A stretch of DNA of 64,000 nt from a virus, in the IMG/VR virus record IMGVR_UViG_3300045988_141624, positions 1-64,000 of that record. The stretch is one strand, 5' to 3'. Position numbers and translations under genes: made by a program. Shown here piece by piece: positions 27,832-63,656 of this stretch. The notes beneath the pieces were generated by a model. That model saw nothing but the letters and a program-made list of their open reading frames with translations, was not told the DNA's origin and did not search any database. Positions within the stretch are counted from its first letter, which is position 1. Every line of letters begins with the position of its first letter.

Positions 27832-30800
27832 ATGTATTTTAACAATCATGTTCATGATGAATACAGTAATGCTGCTTTAGGTTTTCCCGATGTAGTCAAC
27901 AAAGTAGAAGATGTAATTCAAAAAGCTTATGACTTGGGATTAAGTGGTATTGCAATTACTAATCATGAATGTGTTTCCTCACATATTAAAGCATTACAAT
28001 ATTATGAGAAAATGGAAAAAGACAGACCTTTTAAAATTGCTTTGGGGAATGAAATTTATTTAATGGACGAAAGTGAGGACGAAGAAAACAGAACAGAAAA
28101 AAGAACAGTTTATCCTTATTATCATTTTATTTTAACAGCTTTAGACACCTTGGGCCATAAACAAATCAGAGAGCTTTCAACAAGAGCTTGGAAAAGAGCC
28201 TATTTCTCTAGGGGTTTAATGAGGACACCCACTTATTATAGTGATATAGAAGAGGTTGTTGGACAAGAAAAAGGCCATATTATTGCCTCGACCGCTTGTC
28301 TTGGAAGCTTTTTAGATAAGATGATTTTGCAATGGAAAAATGGGGATAATACAGCAAAATTAGCTATTCATAGCTTCATAACGTGGTGCATTGATACTTT
28401 TGGTAAAGATAATTTCTTTTTAGAAATTCAACCATGTTATGAAGATAATGTAGAACAAGTGACAGTTAATTCAGCAATGAAAGAATTATCTAAAGCATAC
28501 AAACTAGGAATCATTCCTACTACTGACGCTCATTATTTAACAAAAGACATGGCTTTTGTGCATAAAACCTATCTAAATTCTAAAGAGGGTGAGCGAGAAG
28601 TAGATAAATTTTATGCCATGACTTATCTAATGGACGAGGAAGAATTGAGAACGTTTCTCAAATTGCAATTTTCCATTAAAGAAATAGATGAAATGTACAA
28701 GAATACGTTGTTAATTTGGGATAGAATTGAAAAATATGATTTACAACACAATCCTATTATTCCTCAAATTCCCGAAGAGAAGTTACCTCAATTTAAAATC
28801 AGACATTTGTTTAAGGAATGGTATTCTAAATATCCTAATTTTGCTTTTTATAGTAACAACGAGAGAACACTCCATGAACAATATTTCTTTTATCAAATTG
28901 AAAAAGGATTTGAAAAAAAGGTTTGTAATAGTGTAAAACCTAAGAATATAGAACAATATATAGCAAGATTAGATGAAGAATTTGAACAATTTCGCTTAAT
29001 AAGTGAAGCATTGGGTACATCTATCCCCTGTTATTTTAGCTCTATGTCCCGAATAATAGATATAATATGGGACATTGGTAGTTTAGTTATGCCAGGGAGA
29101 GGTAGTGCGGGTGCATGTCTTTCTTGTTATTTATTGGATATTACACAAATAGACCCCGTTCCTTTTGGTGATTATATGCCGTTTTGGAGATTCCTTAAAT
29201 AATTTTTTATCCTAAATCATTAAGACATGGATAAAAAATTTAGGGCCTTATATTAGGAATGATATAAGTGGAGACTGTGAACTATCTAACCAATAGGTGT
29301 GAGAATGTAATTCTTGCTAACGAGGAAAGTCTAAGGATGAAAATCTATGATAATCTCGTGCCAAGCCCTTTGTCAAGGAAAGGTGTAACGACTAAGCAAG
29401 CTGAATGTGGTTACAGCTTTAGCGCAGTCTACCCCAACTGAAATAAGTGGGTAAAGAAATAGTCTATCCCGCTATGGAAACATAGCGGTAGTGAGAAACG
29501 TACAACGCGGCGTAGAACTTCCAGATTAATAACATAGTTTGGCTATATGGTGACATATAGAAAATAAAGTGGCTAACCAGTGAAAGTGCTGGGTGTGAGG
29601 AAAATCCTTGCTAACAGTGAAAACCTTGTTCATCCTGAATCGTGAACATGGCGATACTGTGCCAAGTTTTGTATTAAAAATACATTAAAGGTGCAACGAC
29701 TAAGCCCCGTAGGGTGAAACTCCCCGCGGTTAATGCCACTCTCTCCAATTGGAGATGAAGATATAGTCTAAACCGACTGTTTATTCAGTGTTAAAGTATT
29801 GGGAATAAATAACCAACGGTATAATTGATTGACACAGATTCAGAATCATCAAAAAAGAATGAAATTGTTCAGGGTGTTGTAGATTTCTTTGGTGAAGATA
29901 GGGTGTTAAGCATTGCAACATTTTCTGCCTTAACCAGTAAAACGGCAATAGAGAAAAGCTGTAAAGGCTTGGGAATTAATAATGATACAGCTAACTACAT
30001 TAAAGCTATGATACCTATTGAGCGTGGTTTTACTTGGAGCTTAAAAGATTGTTTTGAGGGTGATTTGGAAAAGCAAAGAAAACCAATTCAAACATTTATT
30101 AATGAAGTCAACAAATATCCTAAGCTAAAAGAATGTGCTTTGGCTTTAGAAGGATTGATAACAGGAAGAAGCACTCATGCAGCGGGCATCTTAATTGGGA
30201 ACGAACCTTATACCAATTTCATAGCTGCAATGCGATCTCCCAAAGGCGATTTATGTTCTTGCTATGACCTAATAGACGCTGAACACTGTGGGGAAATTAA
30301 ATTTGACTTGTTAAAAACCAATGCAACAGATAAAATTCACACAACGTTAGATTTGTTACTTAAAGACAATTTAATTGAATGGCAAGGAAGTCTAAAGAGC
30401 ACCTATGAAAAATATATTCATCCCGATGTATTAGATTATGAAAACCCTAAAATGTGGGATATAATTAAAAATATATATAGTGTTTTTCAATTTGATACAA
30501 ATGTCAGTGTCCGCGCTTTAAATGCTACTCATCCTAAAAGCGTTATGGATTTATCTGCAACAAACAACCTGTTAAGGCTTATGTCTCAACCAGGACAAGA
30601 ATCTCCCCTAGATAAATATGCACGTTTTAAAAACAATATTAATGAATGGTATAATGAAATGGAAAGCTATGGGCTTTCTAAAGATGAACAAAAATGCTTA
30701 GAGGAATATTTAATTGATTCTTATGGACTAGCAGACAGTCAAGAAAAAGTAATGCGTCTAAGTATGGATAAAAGAATAAGTGGTTATACATTAAAAGAGG

Positions 30801-32710
30801 CAAACAAACTTCGTAAAAGTATTGCGCGGAAATCACAGAAATTACAAGAAGAAGCTAAGCAACAATTTTTTGAATATGGAGAGAAATTAGGCACCAGAAA
30901 AGAATTTTTAAATTATGTATGGAATGTTATTTTTGGTGCGTCATTTGGCTATGTAGAAATGGTCATGATTTGTGAACCTTACCAGGGGTGTGCTGTTATT
31001 TAACAGTGCTAACGGTATCAGCTGAATAAGACTGTTGTTCAAGAGTTACAACTAGATAACAACGTTAAAAAAGACGAAGCAGCTGACTAAGAAAATCTAA
31101 GGTCTATGTAAAATAGATAGCTGACAATACCGTGCGGTTTCTTATGAGGTCGTGTAGAGACTATTCCGATAGGAAGTACACTAACTATTGGTACGTTGGT
31201 GGAAGTGCAAATCTATAACAAATTTTGTTATAAAGATATAGTCCGATGGATTAATATGAAAATTCATATGTTGTAGAAATACAAAAATCCACTCGATTCC
31301 TTCTCCCAAATTCATTCAACCTCTTATTCTATTATCGCCCTACAAGAATTAAATCTTAATTATTATTACCCCTCAGTCTATTGGAATTGTGCTTGTTTAA
31401 CAGTGGAAAGTCAATCAGACGATGACACAGATAAAAGAACAGCAATAGATTATGGCAAAATGGCTCGCAGTATTTACAAGATGAAACAACATGGTATTGA
31501 TGTTTTGCCTCCTTCTATCAACAAATCCAATATTTCTTTTACACCCAATAAAGAAAACAACACTATTTTGTTTGGATTAGGTGGTATTTCAGGGATAAAC
31601 AATGAAGCAGCTAGAGAAATAGTTAATAATCGTCCATATAGTTCTTTTGAAGATTTCTACAACAAAGTTCAAAAGAATAAAAATACGTTATTAAAAAATC
31701 AAAAAATTATAACTTTAATTAAATCTGGTTGTTTTGATGAGTTTGATACTAGCAGAACAAATATTATGAAACAATATTTTGCTTTAATGTATGAACCAAA
31801 AGAAGAGTTGACTTTGCAAAATATGAGCAAAATATTAGAGTATGATATTCCTGTTCCCGAAGAGCTATTAAACCCTTATTTGTTAAGTAAACAAATAAAA
31901 CAGAAAAAGAATTTCTATAAAAACGATGAAAAAGCTAAGAGTAAAAAACATTATAGAGTGCCACATGATTTACAAAATGATTTATTAATTATGTTCCCTG
32001 AATTAAAAGAAGATGTTGATTATTATTATGATAGTGACATAATGATAATTATTGATAAAGCTTTAGACAAACAAATGAAAAAGATTAATGAAAAAATTAA
32101 AGAGTATATTACACAGGATAAAGTAAAGGATGAGTTTAATTCTAGGGGTAGAGAGTTGTTATACCATGAGAACATAAAACAAGAAAATGAATTGCAATGG
32201 GCTTTTTCTTCCACGTCTTTTTATCCAAACAATGAACATGAATTAAATAACATTGATTGTGATAAATATAATATTATTGATTATAATCTTTTACCAGAGA
32301 ACCCTGAATTTGAAACTAAGTATTATGTTAAGAAAGATGGTGAAGAGGTTGTTTGGAACCAATATTATCTTTATAGAATTTGTGGTACAGTAACAAGTAA
32401 GGATAAAAATAAAAGGACAGTAGATATTTTGACTCCCACCAATGATGTGGTAACAATTCGTTTAAATGATGAAGTTTATACTTATTATGAACAAAAAATA
32501 TCTGAGGGCACAGATACAAATAAAACCGTAATTGATGATAGCTGGTTTACAAGAGGAAAAATGTTATGTGTTGTAGGATATAGACAAGGGGACGGGTTCA
32601 GAGGAAAAAGATATAGAAGCTCAATTTTCAAACATACAATTATGTTAATAGAAAAAGTAAATCAAGACGGTTCTTTAGAGTTAAGAACAGAAAGAAAAAT
32701 AAAAGACTAG
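27832..32710 (+). CDS. dnaE: DNA polymerase III alpha subunit (PHP plus polymerase core), interrupted by three group I introns. Exons: 27832-29195, 29496-29526, 29828-30950, 31296-32710.
   Basis: PHP motif HVHDEYS, plus GRGSAGACLSCYLLDITQIDP. Spliced joins restore FWRFL-NVQRGVELPD-IDTD and GY-SFSQIHS. The exons sum to 3933 nt, which is 1311 codons. Confidence 0.85.
29196..29495 (+). mobile_element. Group I intron (PolIII intron 1, no ORF)
   Basis: The 5' exon ends in U and the insert ends in G. Core-like strings ttgctaacgaggaaag, ctcgtgccaag, gtgtaacgactaagc and aaatagtct. It is a paralogue of the next intron. Confidence 0.75.
29527..29827 (+). mobile_element. Group I intron (PolIII intron 2, no ORF)
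   Basis: The exon end ccagaU can pair with the intron sequence gtttgg (P1-like). Core-like strings ttgctaacagtgaaaac, ctgtgccaag, gtgcaacgactaagc and gatatagtct. It ends in G. Confidence 0.75.
30951..31295 (+). mobile_element. Group I intron (PolIII intron 3, no ORF)
   Basis: It splits GY|SFSQIHS. It contains agatatagtccga. The 5' exon ends in U and the insert ends in G. Confidence 0.7.
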
Positions 32711-35398: not shown

Positions 35399-38300
35399 TT
35401 GTCAAAGTTATTGGAAAAATATCAAGAACAATATAAGCCTTATGTAAAGTTTATTGATTCTTATCGTAAAGCTTCCAATGCAGCTAGTGGTAGTGAAGTA
35501 GACTCTAACGCAAATGTAGAGAATAAAAACATTACCACTTTACAAGGAGAACTAAACAAAAAAGAAATTATTGGAACAAATCGCACTCTAATGATTGAAA
35601 AACTTACAGAACTGTATGGCGAAGAAACCGCAAAAGAATACATTCGTCAACTTGAGGCCCATGAAATTTATAAACATGATGAAACCAGTATTATGCCGTA
35701 CTGCGTTAGCATTACAATGTATCCTTTCTTATTCGATGGGCTAACCAACATCGGTGGTTTATCTACGGCACCCAACAATTTGGATTCTTTTTGTGGGAGC
35801 TTTGTTAATTTAGTATTTGCCATTGCTTCTCAATTCGCAGGAGCAGTAAGCACACCAGAGTTTCTAATGTATATGGATTATTTCATTAGAAAAGAATATG
35901 GAAATGATTATTATTTAAAACCTGATTCTGTAGTATCAGCCATTGGTAGAAAAAGAACTATTCATTCTGTTATTCATGATAAGTTCAGCCAAGTTGTTTA
36001 TTCATTAAATCAACCAGCTGCCGCAAGGAATTTTCAAAGCGTAAACTAAAATGCGCCTATATGTAGTAATAGATATAGCAAACTCCTTTAATTTCTGGGA
36101 AATCTTATTATAATTATAGTTTTATCATTCATAATAAGACAATCAGAAGCGAAGCCCTATAAAGGGAACGTTCAACGACCATTGCGAAAGCAAGTACACT
36201 ATAAGCGTTTGATAGTGGAAATGGGGAGTATCCTTTCAAAGGATAGTGATATGGTCTACTCTTTATGGTGACATAAAGCAGTTCATAAGAGAACGCATAC
36301 AACGTAGCGCATTGTATGGAATACAAGGGTTTTGGAATATTGCTTATTTCGACCAACCTTATTTTAACGGTATGTTTGAAGATTTTGTTTTTCCCGATGG
36401 TTCTGAACCTTGTTGGGATAGTGTGAATTGGCTCCAAAAAGACTTTATGAAATGGTTTAATGCAGAAAGATTAAAAACAGCTACATCGTTCTTATCTTTC
36501 CCTGTTGAAACTGTTAATCTTTTGGATAATGGGACAGATTATGTGGATAAAGAATGGAAAGATTTCACAGCACAAATGTGGGCAGAAGGACATTCATTCT
36601 TCTGTTATAGAAGCAATAGTGTTGACTCGTTGGCATCGTGTTGTAGGCTCAGAAACGAAATTCAAGAAAACACGTTCTCATTTACGTTAGGTGCCGGAGG
36701 TGTGTCTACAGGTTCTAAAGGCGTTATTACCATTAACATCAATAGATTGGTGCAAAATGTTTATAAAAAGAATCCTCACGCAACATTAAAAGATATTTCT
36801 AAAACTGTTAGAGAACAAATTCATAAAGTACATTGTTACTTAACAGCATTTAATGAAATTATAAAAGATAATTTTAAATCTAAAATGCTTCCTGTTTATG
36901 ATGCAGGATATATTGCTTTAGAAAAACAATATTTAAGTTTAGGTATGTAATTTAATGCCTTACATTGCTTTTCCAGTTATCGCTGGGGTACTAAGGAGTG
37001 CTAACGAGGAAACCTGACTACCATAAGGTAAAAGGCAATCTCGTGGGAAGGAAGTTTTTGTATGGAAATTTATATGATTCAAAATGATATTAATAATATG
37101 GTTTATATAGGACAGATAAATAATTCAAAACATAGGTTGAAGCAACATGTTTCAGCAGATTTATTAAAAAGACTGTTTTATTCATTGAAATATGAACAAG
37201 ATAAAACTATGACTCAAATCGCTAGAGAGTATAAAATTGACATAAGTCAACTGAATAAAATTAACCAAGGACGCGACCACAGGGTTGATTGGCAAACATA
37301 TCCTGTTAGAAAAGGCAAAGTATCCAATCCGTTATACAAACATGCTGAGGAAATAAGAAACTTGCTTAAAAACACAGATATTCCACAAAAAGACATAGCC
37401 AGAAAATTTAATGTTTCTGTTTCCTCGGTGCGTGCTATCAATAAGGGGAGCTATTATAGAGATAATAAACTATCTTATCCTTTAAGATATAATTATCAAT
37501 GCTATAATAGTGGAAGAACCGCTCTGTCTCCTAGTGAGGTTTGTGAAATAGAAGAGAAATTAAAAAACACTAATATTTCAATGCGCTCCATTGCTGCGGA
37601 ATACGAAATCGCATTGACAACTGTTACAAATTTAAATATTGGCTCAATAAAAAAATATCGTAAAGAATCATTAAATTATCCATTGCGGAAACTTTAACCT
37701 GTATCGACTATCCTCGCATAGAGGAGTAAAAAAACTATTGATACGTTTTTTGAAATGGCAATGGCACTATCAAGGGATAGTAATTAAGAAATAGTCAGTT
37801 CTATTAGAAATAATAGGTTAAACGATTAACGGTTTTCTTGAAGGGGCAGAATTTTTAGGCATTGAGATTTCACCCAATGAGGAATATTTTGCCTATGGTG
37901 AAGCCATTCTAAAACCAATCTACGAAGAAAACAAAAAAGATAAAACATCAGAGATTATGTTTAACACGGAGTTCGTGCCTGAAAAGAGTGGGCACTAAGT
38001 AGGATAATCCATAAACTACTTATAGGAAATTTTCTTTAATTGACTCGGAAATCCAGAGGTGGACAACGAGGGGCAAGTTTAAATACAGCCTGAACGACTA
38101 AATAAGAAAACTTCATAGGAAATTAAATGAAGGTGCAATAGTCTGAACTCATATACAACCTAACTAAAGTATGAGAAAGAAAGTCAGATGTACAGACATC
38201 TTAAAGAAGAACTTTCTTCGCCAAGCTATCTTGGTCATTAAAGTAACAGAATTGGCAGAAAATCTCGGTGTTAAAAATGCAAAATGGGATAGAGAAGATG

Positions 38301-53566: not shown

Positions 53567-56500
53567 TTAGCGTAGGCTCCCCACTTGAATAGCTGTTGAC
53601 ATAAAATTGTTTTTCAATGTATTTACAAAAGAACTTGCGTCTTTAACATTCGGTAGTACCAACTTTTCAAAATTAAACTGATTATTGGTGTCTCCACTTC
53701 CAGAATTATTATTTGCCCCCAACATGCTTAACCATTGTGACGGATGATATTGTCCAATTTCCATTAAATTTTGCGCCAATGTATGAGGAACAATACCAGA
53801 ACCACGACTCAAAGGTGCTAAAATATTCTGTTGTGACGGAATATATAATTCGCTACCATTTTCGTTAATATTTCCTATCATGTTTCTAGGAATATATGCA
53901 CTACCAGAAGCAAAGCCCTTGGCTGATAAAGCGCTTTGAGTTTTGCTACCAAACACACCATCAACAGATAAGCCAGAATCTTTTTGGAATTTCTTTAGCG
54001 CATTTACGGTTTGAGTTCCCATAACGCCATCGACCGCCAAGTTCCCATAACCCAAAGAATTTAAAGCGTTTTGCAAAGCCTTTACATTATCGCCTTTACT
54101 GCCTTTTTTCAGCGTTCCAGAAGATTTAGTTGATGAACTTCCTCCACCACTGCTTTTTCCAGGAGAAATGTAATTATCATCCAACTGCTGAAGAATAGAG
54201 TTATATTGACTAATGAAACTCTTTAAATTACCAAGTCTCTTTTCCCAATTCTTTTGTTCTTCATTTACACCAAATATCTGTTGAGCAATTAATCTCTTTT
54301 GGTTATTTTCATAAGAATCAGCAGCTTCTTGCCACAAATCCTTATAATCTTCCCAATATTGTATTTTCTCATCATATTTATCTTCGGAAGCTTGCTTTTG
54401 ATTTTGTAAATCCTCTAATTCTTTTTCATAAGCTTGTTTTCGTCTTACTTCATCTAAGTTCTTTTGAGCTTCATTTACAGCGCCTATGTCACTTTCATAA
54501 ACAAAGCCCTTTCCCTCACGATATATTCTAACTCGCGTGTTCTCAGCTTTAGCAAGACTCTCCAATGCTTCTTCTAATTCTAATTGCTTATCTAACTCTT
54601 CATTTTGCTTTTGCAACGCTTTTATTTTAGCATCCCAATACTCTTGCTCTTTCTTCTTTTGTTTTTCTAACGCTTTTATCTCTTTATCAGCTAAATCATT
54701 GATATAGTCTAAAGCGTCTTCGTAGTTTTCTTTTTGTCTTTGTAGCGCTTCTTTTGCTGCATCGGACGTTTGCTTAGAAGCAGAACTTGTTTTAGATTTA
54801 GACTTAGAGCTAGATTTTTTAGAAGATTTTTTACTAGAACTTTTTTTCTTTACACCAGGAGCAGACCAATTTTGAGCAATAGGCGAAACACCGTCAATTG
54901 TTCCGTCCCCACTTAAAATATCTCTGGTGTCTTGAGCATTATATACCACATCGCCTTTGTGTAGGTATCCTAATTCAGCTCCATGTTCACCCGCTATATA
55001 AGCATTTCTACCATGTTTATCTGTTACAAGCTCAGGCCCTTTTTCACCCAACCAAGATAATTCATTCTTGGGTGCACCGGTCGGAGGAGTGCCCGTCCAA
55101 CTACCTTTTACTTTTGATAAATAATTGTTTACAATATCGTCATAACTCGGGTTTCCTGCGCCTGGCCCCGTCACTTTTGTTTGTATCGTAACCGTTTTAA
55201 CAATGTTTGGCATTTTGCGCACATCGTTAAATTGGTCTTGAACAGTAGTTAAATCTTTTTGAGCGTCCTCAGAATCAACATCAACATGCAATAAAGCTCT
55301 AAGCTCAACATCAGACGCCTCTTTAGCTTTGGCTATTTCCTCATCAATTTTTTCCAACGGAGTATTACCGTTTTCATCGCTTACATCAGTTTTAATATTT
55401 ACTTTCTTAATTATCTCACTGATTTCAGAGCTTGTAAAGCCCATTTTTGATAAGAAAGCCACCAAATCAGATAATTTAGCAGTCGCTTGACCCGTACTAG
55501 CGTCAACACTAATAATCTTTTGTTGAGTTAATAAATCCGTCCAAGCCTGAGTAGAAGATTGTAAATCTAATATTTCAACCCCAGCTGCTTTAGCTTGTTC
55601 TATAAAATTATAAAACTCAACATCGGTCATACCCATGGCTGTTTGAGCATCAGCACCAAGCATTAATAATTTTTTACCATTATCATCTACAACTAGACCA
55701 AGTTCACTAGCTTTTGACATCAATGAATCAAAATCGTATTCTATAACCCCGCCTGTTTGTTTGTAAGCTTCCAACAAAGCAGAAAGAGCTTCTCGTGGTA
55801 TGCCTAGTGCTTGTGCTAATTTTTCAGCATTTTTAATCATAATATTGCCTGCGGCGTCAACACTAGCAATATCAGGAGTTACCCCAGCGCCTGAAATAAG
55901 GTCACCTAGCTTAGAATAATCTCCATCTTTAATAAACTTATAGAAGCTTTGGTATCTTTCTCTCGCAGTTTTCTCAGCTAAATCCCAATTACCATTGAAA
56001 TCAGCATACCAATTCTCACCAAAGAATATGCTCATTAACTCTTGGGTCTGAGCACCACGATTTCCTTCAGCAAGATTTTTCATCAACTGCTCATAACCTT
56101 TTGACATATTAGCTAAATGAGCGGTTTCAGGTTCTATTTTTAAAGCAGCTGTTACTCTATCAGAAATGCCTTGTGCACCAGCTTCAATTTCATCGCCTTC
56201 TGCCTTTAAGGCATTGCGCATTTGGGCTAAAGAATCTTTAAACTTAGGAGCATATTCAGACTCGGCTAAATTTAATAAAATTTTCCTAGATTCTTCTATG
56301 CTCTTGTTACCAATCGAAAAATCAGAACTATTAATAGTTTTTACAAGATTATCATAGTCTTGAGCATTTTTAATTTCAGCTGCGCCCATTTGAGTAAGAG
56401 CTTCAATACCCTCTTTTTTAATGGACTCAATATAAGCGTCTTGGGCTGAATTTACTTTATCTTGAGCCTCTTGCAGACTTGACAACTTGGTAGAAACAGC

Positions 56501-59500
56501 ACCCAGTGCATCTGATACATCCATTCCTGCTCCTTCGGCTTGTCTAAGCTTATTGAGCATTATAGAAAGTTTAGATATTTGTTCTTCAACAGGGGCGTTA
56601 TTGTCCCACATTTTGCCCCACTCGTCACCAAAGACTTGTCTAAATTGCCTTAATGCGGAACCCGTTGCTTCCACAGACGCAGTTTGAGCTTCCTTTAACC
56701 CCTTCTCAGCTTCTACTATTTGAGCTTGTAAATATGTACTATTGTTTGCTAATCTCTTACTATAAATTCCACCAAGAATTTGAGATTGCTCTTCATACTT
56801 CCCATTAACTAAATCTATACCAGCTGCCTCATCGCCAATTGAATCTACAATCTTGCCTTGTAATTCACTCAACTGTTTGTTTATAGCAACTCTTTCTTCA
56901 TCACTCTCAGCGTTTTTCTTTTGAGCTGCTAATTCTCTGTATTGAGCTAATTGCTCACCTAGAGTGGTAGTTAATTCACTTTCCTTTTGGCGCAATTCTT
57001 CAGCTTTTTGTTGCTGCTCAGCTCTAACTTGACTAGCATGAGCAGAAAGAGCAGAAAAAATACTAATACCAGCGCTTAAAATGCCTAGGAATCCACCGAC
57101 CCCCATAACCCTTGAGAAAGCACCTACGCCACTTGCTAAAGAACTAAACGCACCCTCGCCAACAGAACGTAAAGAACTAAATGCAGAAGTCGCTGCTTTT
57201 ATAGCTACTGGAATGTTTTTAAACGGTTCTATTAAACTAGTAAAACTATTTTTTAAATTGTTTACTGCATTAGGAAATTGATTTCCTATAAAAATTCCCG
57301 CAAATGTTACCAAAACGGGTATAAAAGTTTGTAGTCCACCCAAAGCATTTGCCACTTCTAAAATAGATGTAGCAAAACTAAGTATAGTTTTTACAGCGCC
57401 TGAACTAATACCTTTTGTAAAGAAGGCTTCAAACTGAGCCGTAAGCCCCGCTATTTTACCTTCAATAGAATCAAGATATGCCGCATTTTCTCTTGAGGCA
57501 GAACCAAAAGAGTTCATAGCGACTTCACTTGCACCAACCGCGCTATCAAAGTTTGAAAGCACACTGTTTACAACGTCTCATTTGTATTAAGTTAATATAA
57601 TTAACCGTAAATAAATTTAGCTAACTCCTTTTTATAAGAACCATCTCTAAACGTCCAATATGGCAATCTCAATAAAGGAATATTATTATTTTTACAATAT
57701 TTATTTTTTATTTCATCTCTTTTTTTCTGATTTAATAAACACTCTTCATCTGTTTTTTGCGTGGTTGTAAAATGAAATATGCCGTCCACTTCTATTAGTT
57801 TTAAATTAGAATCTTGTTTAATACAATAATCAAACCTTAATTTTCTTTTATAAACACAATCATCAAAAGAAAATTCTTTAATATATTTTATATTATTATT
57901 GTTCAACCAATCTTCTACCAAAAACATTATAGAAGAAGTAGCTTTTGTACAAACCGTACATCTTGTTTGTCCTCTTAAAAAAGAAGCTAAACTTACTGTA
58001 AAAAATTTCCCACAACCACACTTCATAATTAAATGTTTTTTATTTGTATCAATTTCTTTTAAACAACACGACAGCTTATTTCTAACAATATAGTGTTTAA
58101 TATTATAAATAAAATAAGGATTATCCCATTTGAAAAACCGAGTTTTTAATTTGTTATACCTGTTTAAAGATAAATAACTTATAACACTTCTATACCCTTC
58201 CTTGTTTTCAAACGGCAATAACTCTTTAATATTATTATACTTATCAAACAATGGAATTAATTCCAAACTTTCAAATGTCTTTTTAACGTATTCTATCTTG
58301 TGTTGCTTATATTCATGAGCTCTTTTTATCGAGCATTTTTGACAAGTACAACATTCACTTTCTAAAAAATGATACAAAGTCTTTGGATAAATTTCCCCAC
58401 ACTTCTCACAAACAAAAAACAGAGGGCTTTTATTTGCGTTTATATATTCTTCACTAATCAAAGACGTATTTTTATGCATTATTTTAATATAATGTCGTAT
58501 ATTTTCTATGGTGTAAGGATTATACTTAGAATATCTTTGAAACTTATAAGTATTACTCATTTTTATTGCTTCCTTTGATAATAAATACTTATAACCTTCA
58601 CCATCTACACAAAAAATTTTATCCTTTATTCTTCGGACGTTTACATATCCATTCTTTAATAATTCTTTAATTTCTTCCATTTTATTTCCTTGCTAAATTT
58701 ATTCACTCTTATACTTTCATATAAGATTAGACTATATTTTTATCACAATATAAAATCGTAATAACTGGCTCTTTCCACATAAATACTATGTGTACCCTAC
58801 TTGCTTCGTCTATTAAAATAGCTTATTCTATTATATAATAGTTACATTTATTAATTCTTATAAAAACTTATTAATTCTTATAGAAACTAATTGCTTTTGG
58901 TAGTCGTTGAACCTTATTCTATATTTCAATAGAATCTTGGCTGCGGATTGACCATATATCTTTACGCTTTTTACCATACTCTAGTTAGTTACTCTAAACC
59001 ATTGAAACATTGCTGTCTCAACTTGGTACGCAAAGCTTTAGGCTTCCATGTCTTTTACACAGAAATAGTAAACCACTCTATCTTCCCCGCAATTTAGCCA
59101 GTACGGGCTTATGTTGCAAAACCTGGGTTTTCTTGTTTGTTAGCTTTTGCTTTCACAAAAGAACGGATTATATTTTAATATTGTTCAAAACAATACCGCA
59201 GACTCTTTCCATATATACATATGTACTCTACTCGCTTCGTCCATTTATATGGCTTATTCTATCATACGATAGTTACATTTGTCAACTTAAAGTCAACTGC
59301 TTTTGATAATCTCTGAACCTTATTCTATATTTCAATAGAATCTTGGCTGCGGATTGACCATATATCCTTATACTTTTTACTATATCTTAGTTAATTACTC
59401 CAAGCCCCTAATATATCACTATATTAAGTTAGTATATAAGGCTCTTAGGCATCCATGTTAAACACAGATAAAAGTGATGAACCTTTTCTTTCCCGCAATT

Positions 59501-60864
59501 AAGTCTGTCCGTGGCTCAACCCTAGAGTCAACCACCTATCAAAGAGGCATAATAATTTTTAGTATTCTGGTCTAACGTATCCCAAATACCAGATAATTCC
59601 GAAAAAATTTCAAACGTAGATTTTAACTGTCCACCAGTACCCATTAGGGTTATACCGATTTTGTTAAAATCTTTTTCCATAGAGGCTAATAAGTCAAGGT
59701 TTTGTTCCCCTGAATCATCCATAGCCTGTAAATTCAATGTAATGGTTCTTAAACCACGAGCAACACGACTTGCTTGCCCAGGCATCATCTCGGTGCCTGC
59801 TGTTAGTACATTATATTAATAAAGAATCGTTACTTCTTTATGAATTGCACAAAACAATTCCTTACACTTTCATGTAAGATTAGATTATATCTTGTTTATA
59901 ATAAAATATAAACTGCCCCGTTTCCCCGCACTTGCGAGTATGCTATATTACAATAGACTTACTAATCGTTGAACTTTTTTCCATTGTCTATGGAAACTTA
60001 GCTGCGGATAACCCAATATTTATTTTTGTTACTATACCAAAAACATTACTTTTTGCCATCATAATATTACTATTATAATTTAGTAAATAAATCTCTAAGG
60101 GCTTCCCCGTCAATTAGAGGCATTTTACTAGACCAACTATTTTAGCCTAATGTTTGTTCCATGCTATTCCCAGCTTGCGCCATCGTAGCGGCAACTTTAG
60201 GAACAGCCGTGGCTAAATCACCTGAAGATACTGCAAACTTATTTGCTACTTCGTTTACAGCGTCTACAATATGCTCTGAATCTGCTGCTGTAATATTAAA
60301 TGCTTTCATTTGAGAAATCAAGAAAGCAGCAGCGTCACCAGCACTTACTTCTTCATCAGCAACATTCTGGAACATAGAAGCAACTTCAGCCAATTGAAGA
60401 GATTCTACATCATTAAAACCAGATTTAGTAAATTCAGTTGCAGCTTCAATTACTTGTGTAGCCGTTCTCGCAACCTTTTCACCAACCTGTAAAGCTCTAT
60501 TGCCAAATTGCTCTAGTTCAGCACCCGTCATGTCACTGACTTTTCTTAATTCTGTCATAGCTGCGTCTAATTCAAAAACAGAAGACACACCTTTTCTAAA
60601 AGAATTGTAAACAGAATCAATTATTTTTGTACCAATTTGCCATCTTGAGTTCTTATCAATAATACTGCTCAAGGACTGACTAGTTTTGTCCATGGCTTTA
60701 TTCATTTTATTGAAACCAGAAGTGGCAGATTTAGTACCAGCGTCACCAAATTTAAAACCCTTAAAGTTTGAAGCAAGCTTATTAAGCTGTCCTTGTAAAT
60801 TGTTTTCATCTAAAAGGGCTTTAACGTTAATACTATAATTATTACTTCCTGGCAAATAAACCAC
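53567..60864 (-). CDS. Tail tape-measure protein interrupted by three group I introns. Proposed exons: 60864-60150, 59808-59531, 59153-59121, 59559-53567 corrected to 57559-53567.
   Basis: The N-terminal fragment has a TP901-type TMP core (MTELRKVSDMTGAELEQFG...). The fragment 59788-59528 continues it (AGTEMMPGQASRVARGLR). The large C-terminal ORF is coiled-coil rich and carries a PG_binding_1 domain. The proposed exons sum to 5019 nt, which is 1673 codons. Junctions are uncertain by a few nt. Confidence 0.75.
57560..59120 (-). mobile_element. Group I intron (TMP intron 3) with an endonuclease ORF in its 3' region
   Basis: Core strings aattgcggggaag, atccgcagccaagattc, ggttcaacgactacc and aatatagtct precede ORF 58680-57601. 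It is a paralogue of intron 2. Confidence 0.65.
57601..58680 (-). CDS. Intron-encoded putative homing endonuclease: repeated zinc-ribbon modules plus a C-terminal PD-(D/E)XK (Vsr/DUF559-like) domain
   Basis: Several CxxC...CxxC pairs (CEKC..CCTCQKC, CGC..CTVC). The C-terminus reads RFDYCI...LIEVDGIFH...K..D, then PLLRLPYW. Confidence 0.5.
   Translation of the reverse strand: MEEIKELLKNGYVNVRRIKDKIFCVDGEGYKYLLSKEAIKMSNTYKFQRYSKYNPYTIENIRHYIKIMHKNTSLISEEYINANKSPLFFVCEKCGEIYPKTLYHFLESECCTCQKCSIKRAHEYKQHKIEYVKKTFESLELIPLFDKYNNIKELLPFENKEGYRSVISYLSLNRYNKLKTRFFKWDNPYFIYNIKHYIVRNKLSCCLKEIDTNKKHLIMKCGCGKFFTVSLASFLRGQTRCTVCTKATSSIMFLVEDWLNNNNIKYIKEFSFDDCVYKRKLRFDYCIKQDSNLKLIEVDGIFHFTTTQKTDEECLLNQKKRDEIKNKYCKNNNIPLLRLPYWTFRDGSYKKELAKFIYG
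59154..59530 (-). mobile_element. Group I intron (TMP intron 2, no ORF)
   Basis: The exon end gtggU can pair with the intron sequence gccac (P1-like). Core strings aattgcgggaaag, atccgcagccaag and atataatcc. It ends ..ttgtG. Confidence 0.65.
59809..60149 (-). mobile_element. Group I intron (TMP intron 1, no ORF)
   Basis: Minus-strand core strings aattgacggggaag, atccgcagctaag, ttcaacgatta and gatataatct. An alternative in-frame 5' splice site lies at 60144. Confidence 0.7.
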
Positions 60865-60882: not shown

Positions 60883-61422
60883 TTATTTCTTTTTCAAATT
60901 CCCACTAACCCTATATTTTTTCATTGTTGAAGCGGCGATTAAAATAGAATCAGAAATATCATCATCATTTTTAGAAGAACCAGGAGACACAAAAATTAAA
61001 TTCAGATTAAACATCTGATTGGCCAACTTAATAGAGTTTTCTTTTAATTTATCCCTCTTTTGGTCAGCTCTGTCCCCACTAAATATCCCAATATTTTTCC
61101 TCCAAGTAGAAACAGGAATAAAATCTATCATTAAATCAGGATAATCTTTTTTAAACAACAACAAAGACCCCTGTACAGCCCCTAATTGCACCAAAGTTTT
61201 CTTCCCTTTTTGAGAAAATAAGGGCACATCTTCTACTACTAATCTATCTGGACGATATTGTTTAATTACATCATTTAACTGTGTAAAAATATCTACTATT
61301 CTTTCACGCCAATCTTCATGTTTACGCTTTGGCACAATTTTACCATAAGCCAATAATTCATCATTAAAAAAAATGCTCCAACCAGTACAATTGGTTGAAG
61401 CATCTACACCCATAATTATCAT
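60883..61422 (-). CDS. ruvC: RuvC-like Holliday junction resolvase
   Basis: MGVDASTNCTGWSIF (first Asp), LVVEDVPLF (Glu) and DDISDSILIA (Asp pair). Confidence 0.75.
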   Translation of the reverse strand: MIIMGVDASTNCTGWSIFFNDELLAYGKIVPKRKHEDWRERIVDIFTQLNDVIKQYRPDRLVVEDVPLFSQKGKKTLVQLGAVQGSLLLFKKDYPDLMIDFIPVSTWRKNIGIFSGDRADQKRDKLKENSIKLANQMFNLNLIFVSPGSSKNDDDISDSILIAASTMKKYRVSGNLKKK

Positions 61423-62895: not shown

Positions 62896-63279
62896 TTAAA
62901 GTGTTGATACACTCTTTACATAGTAGAAAACAAAAGCCCCAAACAACACAATGGTAATAAAATTCTTTTTCAAAAATCCCAAAATATCAAATTTACCCTT
63001 TTCATCCACTTCTTCTACTTCATTCTCTATCCTCATTAAATTCTCTTCCATTTTTTTAACTACTTCTCGGTTATGCTCTACGTCTTTTATATTTTGTTCC
63101 AACAAATAATTAGTTTTCATCATTGTTTTATTTAATTCGCTCAACATATTATTGTTGTTTTTTACCATTGTTGTTAGATTTGTTATTTGAACCTCTGTTT
63201 TCGCTAAACTTGTCTCGGCTTTCCCCAATCTCTTTTCCAAATTTCGATAATCGTTTTTTATATCTGTAATCCCATCCAT
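62896..63279 (-). CDS. Coiled-coil protein with a C-terminal TM anchor (XhlA-like lysis accessory?)
   Basis: A long heptad-like N-terminus and the C-terminal ITIVLFGAFVFYYV. Its start overlaps the end of the MazF-like gene by 22 nt. Confidence 0.4.
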   Translation of the reverse strand: MDGITDIKNDYRNLEKRLGKAETSLAKTEVQITNLTTMVKNNNNMLSELNKTMMKTNYLLEQNIKDVEHNREVVKKMEENLMRIENEVEEVDEKGKFDILGFLKKNFITIVLFGAFVFYYVKSVSTL

Positions 63280-63656
63280 CCTCTTCCCCTCCCCTTTTTA
63301 TATTTATTATCAAAAATGCCTAGTGCTTTCTTCATTCTGTATTCAATTCTTATCATATCTTTCGGCTCTATCTCTCCTAAATACTGTAATAATTGTCTTT
63401 CTTCCACTGGCATTATTTGTTCTGTTAAAATTGTATTAGATTCCTTCCACAAAAAAGGATATTTATTAACCTCTAAACTATAATGAGTCGGAAGCCATGT
63501 CTTTTGTTTGCTTGTTAAAGGGACACACAAGAACACCGTGCTATAGTGACAACTATAATTATTACCCACTATTAAAACTGGGCGCACACCAAACTGTATA
63601 CTCCCCACTCTTTTCCCTAAGTCAGCTAAATAAATACCTCGCCTCTTAATCAACAT
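63258..63656 (-). CDS. mazF: MazF/EndoA (PemK) family endoribonuclease toxin homologue
   Basis: It aligns end to end with B. subtilis EndoA: KRRGIYLADLGKRVGSIQFGVRPVLIV against [34 protein letters not shown] against LPTHVEI, and TILTEQIMPVEERQL against VILLEQIRTIDKQRL. Confidence 0.8.
   Translation of the reverse strand: MLIKRRGIYLADLGKRVGSIQFGVRPVLIVGNNYSCHYSTVFLCVPLTSKQKTWLPTHYSLEVNKYPFLWKESNTILTEQIMPVEERQLLQYLGEIEPKDMIRIEYRMKKALGIFDNKYKKGRGRGWMGLQI

Follow-up and report, generated by a model that had tools for sequence, protein, structure and literature searches.

The window analysed here, a 64,000-nt stretch of viral DNA (IMG/VR record IMGVR_UViG_3300045988_141624, positions 1 to 64,000), carries on its minus strand three open reading frames (ORFs; 60864-60142, 59788-59528 and 57562-53567) that are pieces of a single tail tape-measure protein. 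An earlier note on this DNA had listed these ORFs at exactly these positions and assigned them to a tape-measure gene with three group I introns, including a tandem pair around a tiny exon. The Pfam match of the product, covariation within the introns and natural intron-less alleles confirm that the locus is a tape-measure gene cut by three group I introns, two of which are paralogous and stand in tandem around a very short exon. Its features are as follows:

60144..60864, minus strand: tape-measure exon 1, 721 nt, with a GTG start at 60864 and the 3' end ...ACATTAGGCT; placed by the ORF, the L007 allele and a gap-free protein alignment
59809..60143, minus strand: intron 1, 335 nt, an ORF-free group I ribozyme, starting after U60144 and ending with G59809
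59531..59808, minus strand: exon 2, 278 nt, coding for ...LTAGTEMMPGQ...YYASLIGG and containing an 86-aa ORF
59132..59530, minus strand: intron 2, 399 nt, an ORF-free group I intron, subgroup IA-like with P7.1/P7.2, starting after U59531 and ending with G59132
59121..59131, minus strand: micro-exon, 11 nt, AAAACCCAGGT; placed by the L002 allele and homologous proteins
57579..59120, minus strand: intron 3, 1542 nt, starting after U59121 and ending with G57579
Parts of intron 3, minus strand: ribozyme core 59120-58707, a nuclease ORF cassette and a 30-nt 3' tail 57608-57579
57601..58680, minus strand: predicted homing-endonuclease ORF of intron 3, 359 aa, after P9 and outside the ribozyme core, with zinc-ribbon repeats and a C-terminal nuclease domain
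53567..57578, minus strand: exon 3, 4012 nt including the stop codon, starting A GAC GTT GTA AAC, that is (V)DVVN...

Joined in this order, the four exons form a 5022-nt coding sequence of 1673 codons without an internal stop. The spliced protein matches PF10145 (PhageMin_Tail) over residues 123-331 (91.9 bits, against a cut-off of 33.2) and, in its C-terminal part, PG_binding_1 (peptidoglycan-binding) over residues 1499-1554. The micro-exon codes for K, T and Q and supplies the first two bases of a Val codon (AAA ACC CAG GT), the third base being the first of exon 3. The 5' splice site of intron 1 falls within an in-frame TAA, that of intron 2 is directly followed by an in-frame TGA, and reading on into intron 3 from the exon frame meets a stop after 14 full codons of intron sequence. 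All three introns start after a U and end in a G (...TATAATG, ...AAACAAG and ...ACAAATG). The predicted spliced junction of intron 1 reads ACATTAGGCT/TACTAACAGC (slashes mark splice points) and those of introns 2 and 3 read GGTGGT/AAAACCCAGGT/AGACGTTG, or in longer form GATAGGTGGT/AAAACCCAGGT/AGACGTTGTA; the predicted junction peptides of the spliced protein are VAATMAQAGNSMEQTLGLLTAGTEMMPGQASR and TQVDVVNSVLSNFDSAVGASEVAMNSFGSASR.

The exon boundaries were set by related metagenome contigs (designated by L numbers) from which one or several of the elements are naturally missing. Contig L007 lacks intron 1 exactly and reads ...TTAGGCT/TACTAACAGC at that site, introns 2 and 3 being present. Conversely, in L002 (96% identical) intron 1 is present and introns 2 and 3 are exactly absent, the sequence across sites 2 and 3 being GATAGGTGGT/AAAACCCAGGT/AGACGTTGTAAAC (GGTGGT/AAAACCCAGGT/AGACG); the intron-less target of this type is ...GGTGGTAAAACCCAGGTAGACGTTG... 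Three further contigs carry other combinations: L001, in which intron 1 holds a 368-aa nuclease ORF, lacks introns 2 and 3 and retains the 11 nt, and L008 and L009 carry both introns around the same 11 nt with the nuclease ORF absent, the base corresponding to 58707 being joined to that at 57608. L004 contains a copy of intron 2, 97% identical, with an ORF after P9. All carriers and the intron-less allele have the same 11-nt micro-exon, and downstream of it the exon frame is kept, 4.1 kb being 88-94% identical at the nucleotide level to L008 and L009. Because natural alleles without each element exist, the boundaries are defined to the base.

Protein homologs, found by a search with the joined exon pieces, agree with these alleles. 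Twelve of them are uninterrupted across both junction regions, and all twelve align gap-free with the spliced product over both. They read through 'EQTLG-L-LTAGTE' ('TLGLLTAG') without a gap, fitting the junction 60144/59808, and have exactly 10 residues between '...IGG' and 'LSNF' (for example KTQVDVVNSI; 12/12). A 23-nt version of the micro-exon, with the 3' splice site right after the P9 hairpin and LTNK added to the protein, was considered and rejected, L002 having 11 nt only and the homologs showing no four-residue insertion.

The earlier note had drawn part of the exon structure differently: three of its six junctions stand, and the intron-less alleles show the other three to be misplaced. 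It ended exon 1 at 60150, where the L007 allele and the gap-free 'TLGLLTAG' of the homologs give 60144; it ended intron 2 at 59154 instead of 59132; and it began exon 3 at 57559 instead of 57578, DVVNSV being encoded in frame immediately upstream of its start. The result was a 33-nt mini-exon at 59153-59121 (KAKANKQENPG), with AAAGCAAAAGCTAACAAACAAG placed in the exon, in lieu of the 11 nt at 59131-59121 given by the L002 allele and the 12 homologs. The construct is indeed open, its total of 5019 nt is correctly added up and holds no stop, and its splice sites also follow U and G. However, the uninterrupted gene of L002 has AAAACCCAGGT only between the sites and continues with AGACGTTGTAAACAGTGTG, which that construct puts inside intron 3, and exon 1 of L007 ends at 60144. 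Homologs all have KTQV plus DVVNSI or DVVNSV, as well as 'TLGLL', whereas the construct drops 2 and swaps 10 conserved residues, and the 3' splice site it gives intron 2 falls within the loop of the conserved P9 hairpin, which would be cut there. This exon structure is already refuted by the intron-less alleles and retains practically no probability; the junctions tabulated above are used throughout.

The group I core strings quoted by the earlier note all lie on the minus strand at the expected places: AATTGACGGGGAAG at 60115-60102, AATTGCGGGAAAG at 59500-59488, AATTGCGGGGAAG at 59094-59082, ATCCGCAGCCAAG at both 59354-59342 and 58948-58936, and AATATAGTCT at 58738-58729. The motif AATTG(N)CGGG occurs nowhere else on either strand of the 64-kb window. 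The search with Rfam model RF00028 that the earlier note had put forward as a check gives a divided answer. No match in this region is found at the gathering threshold (50 bits), and a permissive search matches all three gaps, intron 1 with 49.0 bits (E 1e-10), intron 3 with partial matches of 28.4 and 19.0 bits, and intron 2 with 16.6 bits; the ORF-less intron 3 of L008 reaches 37.2 bits. The scores are low because large insertions (the P5 extension and P7.1/P7.2) align badly to the Rfam model, and the RF00028 threshold is a classifier cut-off, not a biological feature. The Rfam alignment of introns 2 and 3 was not retained, its P3' being misplaced owing to the ~130-nt P7.1/P7.2 insert; the covariation-supported P3 described below was used instead.

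Introns 2 and 3 are paralogous across the whole ribozyme (~400 nt, 73% identical). The earlier note was right about the paralogy of the two units and too narrow in limiting it to their 5' halves. Diverged copies of both intron families were gathered with nhmmer from other tape-measure loci, aligned with MAFFT and analysed by pair counting. For the family of introns 2 and 3 the alignment (A3) holds nine sequences, one pair of them near-identical and the others sharing 63-77% identity. RNAalifold applied to it recovers P4, an extended P5, P6/P6a, P7, P7.1, P7.2 and P9, to which P3 was then added as a pseudoknot. The resulting model has 87 pairs in 16 helices and 95.5% of its cells are paired, whereas sliding the partners by 1-3 columns lowers this to 32-41%. 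Changes on both sides are seen at 54 of the 87 pairs (7-14 in the slid controls), and none of 500 shuffles reaches the observed values. Compensated pairs include 4 of 7 in P3 and 3 of 6 in P7. The P3 variants are CAGACU/AGUCUG, CUGGCU/AGCCAG and CAGAUU/AAUCUG, and those of P7 are GAUUA/UAAUC, GACUA/UAGUC, GCAUA/UAUGC and GGUCA/UGACC, the first P7 pair, G-C, being invariant. The core helices P3-P9, with the P3/P7 pseudoknot topology, are thus conserved and kept by compensatory changes. Between the P7 5' strand and P3', a block of ~130 nt consists of compensated hairpins (helices 13-15), all with compensatory changes; it represents the P7.1/P7.2 arrangement of subgroup IA, a subgroup assignment made from helix positions only. 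In the alignment of the intron 1 family (A5), 29 of 55 predicted pairs show changes on both sides.

The arrangement of introns 2 and 3 around the micro-exon is present on at least four independent contigs, namely the window, L007, L008 and L009, the only lineage in which introns 2 and 3 were found together. The 86-aa ORF of exon 2 occurs with exact sequence on 89 public contigs, and exact window proteins occur on public contigs of up to 136 kb. Taken together, the independent contigs and the exact ORF on 89 of them indicate circulating phages and not one assembly. In public records the pieces appear as separate ORFs named 'hypothetical protein' or 'minor tail protein' only (DAH38656.1, DAH38657.1, DAQ95449.1), with the introns and the 11-nt exon unannotated. 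Such annotation would fit interruptions that are decayed, non-functional or an artefact of assembly, in a gene that is dead or expressed as separate unspliced polypeptides, as would Rfam scores under the curated cut-off and a splicing scheme drawn from sequence. Against this, four independent contigs share the arrangement and dozens share exact ORFs, the ribozyme helices are kept by compensatory changes and the exon frames are preserved. Furthermore, the 11-nt piece is not translatable alone, and exon 2 starts inside a conserved motif without an independent start context. A dead, artefactual or unspliced locus is therefore considered highly improbable.

Splice-site recognition points in the same direction. 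All nine aligned members of the intron 2/3 family sit after an exon ending in '...GGU', with a guide sequence that starts with GCC in each. The exon contexts are GGUGGU, CCAGGU, GCGGGU, GCAGGU, GCUGGU and GCCGGU, and exon positions -4 and -5 covary with the guide, the pairs U-A, A-U, G-C and C-G all being seen at -4. In the window, P1 of intron 1 is formed by AUUAGGCU with UGGUCUAGU (-7.3 kcal/mol) and P1 of intron 2 by GUGGU with GCCAC (-7.4 kcal/mol). Intron 2 also has a P10-like pairing with the micro-exon (-8.4 kcal/mol, over about nt 3-10). For intron 3, P1 is CAGGU with GCCCG, which has an A.C mismatch at -4 and would cover nt 7-11 of the micro-exon, and P10 comprises 7 bp (-7.5 kcal/mol). 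The intron 3 guide GCCCG (59108-59104) would form a P1 free of mismatches with CGGGU, the exon context of site 2 in L078 and L093, and the intron at site 3 of L038 has a perfect guide, GCCUG. The mismatch may be left over from a shift away from a target of the site-2 type; the star-like family tree gives no direction for such a shift.

The proposed mechanism is established group I chemistry applied to the present sequence. The guide of each ribozyme would pair with the last bases of the upstream exon to form P1, in which a U.G wobble marks the splice site; cleavage by free guanosine would occur there, and the freed exon end would attack after the terminal G of the intron. A single mRNA for the 1673-aa protein would result. 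The 11-nt exon would serve twice, being both 3' exon and P10 partner for intron 2, and both 5' exon and P1 partner for intron 3. Because the pairings of the two ribozymes on the micro-exon overlap, introns 2 and 3 most likely splice one after the other. The reading frame would require the separate splicing of each, since skipping of the micro-exon causes a frameshift with a stop at codon 344.

It could be asked whether introns 2 and 3 are instead removed together with the 11 nt as one composite intron, or whether the micro-exon is often skipped, so that a truncated product of 343 aa is the main or a regulated second one. Phage group I introns are known to cause exon skipping in Twort orf142 and in SIOphi (PMC11878797), the weak P1 of intron 3 speaks for skipping, and the stop at codon 344 would fall just past the PF10145 domain. 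Yet skipping as the sole pathway would destroy the 1330-aa remainder of the protein, which is intact and conserved. The identity of the 11 nt in all carriers and in the intron-less allele argues against composite removal, and both ribozymes retain their own P1, guide sequence and full compensated core. Composite removal or frequent skipping is accordingly judged improbable. A nested twintron, which the locus resembles in having two ribozymes within one gene interruption, was also rejected: the introns are adjacent with 11 nt of genuine exon between them, each has its own exon-derived P1, and each site is singly filled in relatives.

Taking all of this into account, the best explanation is that an uncultured SPbeta-like gut phage carries a tape-measure gene with three phage IA-type group I introns, spliced as proposed, to which a probability of roughly 0.87 is given. 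Several points weigh against it. None of the three introns reaches the curated 50 bits of RF00028 (49.0, 28.4 partial and 16.6), and the covariation alignments, which also supplied part of the structure, hold only 8-9 sequences. In intron 3 the canonical P1, of five positions including an A.C mismatch, is weak and has a rival in a CCAG/CUGG pairing of -5.7 kcal/mol. Splicing is deduced from DNA and not from RNA, and an efficient handling of the 11-nt exon by the flanking introns (399 and 1542 nt) is an assumption.

The ORF in intron 3 is predicted to encode a homing endonuclease. It matches PHROG families of homing and intron nucleases with E values of 1e-13 to 1e-38, among them phrog_559 (3.5e-38), phrog_9084 ('homing endonuclease', 1.4e-22) and phrog_7140 ('intron encoded nuclease'). 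Its Pfam match to DUF2726 (E 0.024) is under the cut-off of that family. Nucleases of relatives are labelled DUF2726 (PF10881), DUF559, Vsr or 'very-short-patch-repair endonuclease', and 'restriction enzyme'; the largest matching PHROG family bears the label 'HNH endonuclease', a misfit with the DUF2726/DUF559-type labels. Within the C-terminal domain of the family D284, E297, H303 and K325 are invariant and D299 is nearly so. An AlphaFold (AF2) model of the protein has a pLDDT of 90.8. A sequence search of the Protein Data Bank (PDB) with the nuclease gave no match, and a whole-chain Foldseek search of the model against the PDB gave nothing with E < 0.02. Local Foldseek matches were obtained with the R2 restriction-like endonuclease, the La Crosse endonuclease and AF1548 (probability 0.75-0.96) and with TnsA (0.51); all local matches of high probability are to nucleases of the PD-(D/E)xK type. 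The C-terminal domain is probably PD-(D/E)xK-like, for which this fold search of the model is weakly suggestive.

The nuclease ORF comes and goes independently of intron 3, being gone in L008 and L009. Related ORFs, sharing ~30% identity with one another as well as the zinc-ribbon repeats and the C-terminal domain, lie in intron 1 of L001 (11008-12114), in intron 2 of L004 (2568-3137) and in intron 3 of the window, so that one nuclease family rides introns at three different sites of the tape-measure gene in different relatives. Among the proteins fetched, none is a close match to the L004-type intron 2 ORF on a longer contig. The homing-endonuclease gene would make intron 3 mobile at the DNA level, and the ORF-less intron 2, 11 bp away, would be co-copied with it.

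Presence and absence of the introns among relatives follow a pattern of the mobility type. Interrupted tape-measure genes are common in this phage family, and the interruptions cluster near residues 134, 241-268 and 333-342. Site 2 alone is filled in L078, L096, L085, L082, L083, L093 and L095, and also in L040 and L020, where the ribozyme belongs to a different family. Site 3 alone is filled in L038. In a small sample of IMG/VR searched by exact matching, neither a window-type intron 3 without intron 2 nor an ORF-less intron 2 without intron 3 was found, which weakly suggests that the two introns are linked. A second tandem ribozyme pair is present in the distantly related L096 (3912-4500) and in L099, at a further hot spot near residue 253 of the window protein, around an exon of ~21 nt coding for 'SKVARGL'; short exons between tandem introns thus recur in this gene family. 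The tape-measure gene of L096 also has a third intron, at site 2.

The earlier note had called self-splicing introns in a tail-length gene unusual, which overstates the case given the precedents in PMC2504315 and their frequency in the present family; its further idea, that splicing efficiency would gate virion assembly, is a conjecture. In prophages of the Bacillus cereus group, tape-measure genes carry the group I introns TMP-IVS1, IVS2 and IVS3 at three sites, two of which are occupied by 80%-identical IA2 paralogs with a re-adapted P1, and a tape-measure intron of Lactobacillus phage JCL1032 is also listed (Tourasse & Kolsto 2008, PMC2504315). These resemble the introns described here in the type of gene, the use of several sites, the IA type, the re-adapted P1 and guide, the presence or absence of an ORF and the patchy distribution, the paralogs being 80% identical there and 73% here. 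They differ in that no strain in Table 2 of that report has both IVS1 and IVS2, whereas here the paralogs stand 11 nt apart around a micro-exon. The phage lineages also differ, B. cereus-group prophages in PMC2504315 and uncultured SPbeta-like gut phages here.

Other phage structural genes offer further parallels. Cluster J mycobacteriophages have spliced introns in capsid and tail genes (PMC3706429). PMC11878797 describes three introns and exon skipping in the tail tube gene orf142 of Twort and, from 2025, a small exon between two group I introns of phiNIT1, found by nanopore cDNA sequencing. The present gene is similar to these in having three introns in a phage tail gene and a small exon between two group I introns. 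The Twort and phiNIT1 cases are supported by RNA whereas the locus here is known from sequence, and the flanking introns here are paralogs. In fungal mitochondria, side-by-side group I introns with mini- or micro-exons are known, for example cob-490 and cox3-640 of Ophiostomatales (PMC7902536, PMC12308204). As here, two IA-type modules are separated by an exon or pseudo-exon spacer of a few nucleotides, and a sequential, 'ratchet-like' splicing has been proposed for them (PMC7902536, PMC12308204). Those tandems, however, are organellar and their spacer is often a duplicated pseudo-exon, whereas the present pair belongs to a phage and its 11 nt are genuine coding sequence in the intron-less allele. 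A limited literature search found no report of a phage gene in which two paralogous introns flank a coding micro-exon of 11 nt. The distinctive feature of the present locus is the unusually tiny middle exon between paralogs; tape-measure introns as such are already documented.

The setting of the gene is that of a tail module. Neighbouring genes of the relatives match the SPbeta tail families YomN, YomU, YomW, YomX and YonB. Related tape-measure genes are found on contigs of gut and rumen metagenome-assembled genomes labelled Bacilli, Coprobacillaceae, Clostridia and Agathobacter, and also on ~100 IMG/VR contigs. When the 7.3-kb region was compared by megablast with 50,697 phage records, no annotated close relative emerged; the only two matches, of ~100 nt, fall at query 750-863 (the conserved P4-P5 core of intron 1, ~60115-60002) and are to phages of Staphylococcus and Enterocloster. 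Within the tail module, and directly upstream of the tape-measure gene, lies a gene for a RuvC-like Holliday-junction resolvase (60883-61422, minus strand; Pfam RuvC 9e-08, PHROG 1e-16), which keeps the same position in L001-L005. A 132-aa ORF (63258-63656, minus strand) occupies the position of a gene of L001 (7256-7603) that has a PemK-toxin Pfam match. Elsewhere in the window, three more group I ribozymes score above the gathering score, at 29223-29487, 29535-29788 and 36033-36278 (all plus strand; 62.5, 52.7 and 83.7 bits). The first two, ~47 nt apart and between ORFs 27832-29202 and 29825-31003, are a candidate for another tandem-intron/short-exon arrangement, and the third lies between ORFs 35399-36049 and 36246-36950.

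For annotation, no ORF-based pipeline would detect an exon of 11 nt, and the corrected join restores a 1673-aa tape-measure protein. The relatives provide a natural series of alleles, from the intron-free gene through intron 1 alone to the pair of introns 2 and 3, with copies that have or lack the nuclease ORF. One ribozyme family has been re-targeted to several '...GGU' sites of one gene. The known working of such introns is unchanged by the present locus, which is useful for studying how group I introns change their insertion site and how a very short exon is shared by two ribozymes. A more speculative view, which we regard as rather unlikely, is that the paralogous introns and the 11-nt exon form one functional unit, with the exon claimed almost entirely by pairings, an obligatory order of splicing, a 343-aa fragment as the product of mis-ordering, and a two-intron mobile cassette. 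If this were true, intron 2, having no ORF of its own, would depend entirely on the nuclease of intron 3 and on co-conversion for its spread, and ribozyme kinetics would set how much full-length relative to truncated protein is made and, through this, tail assembly.

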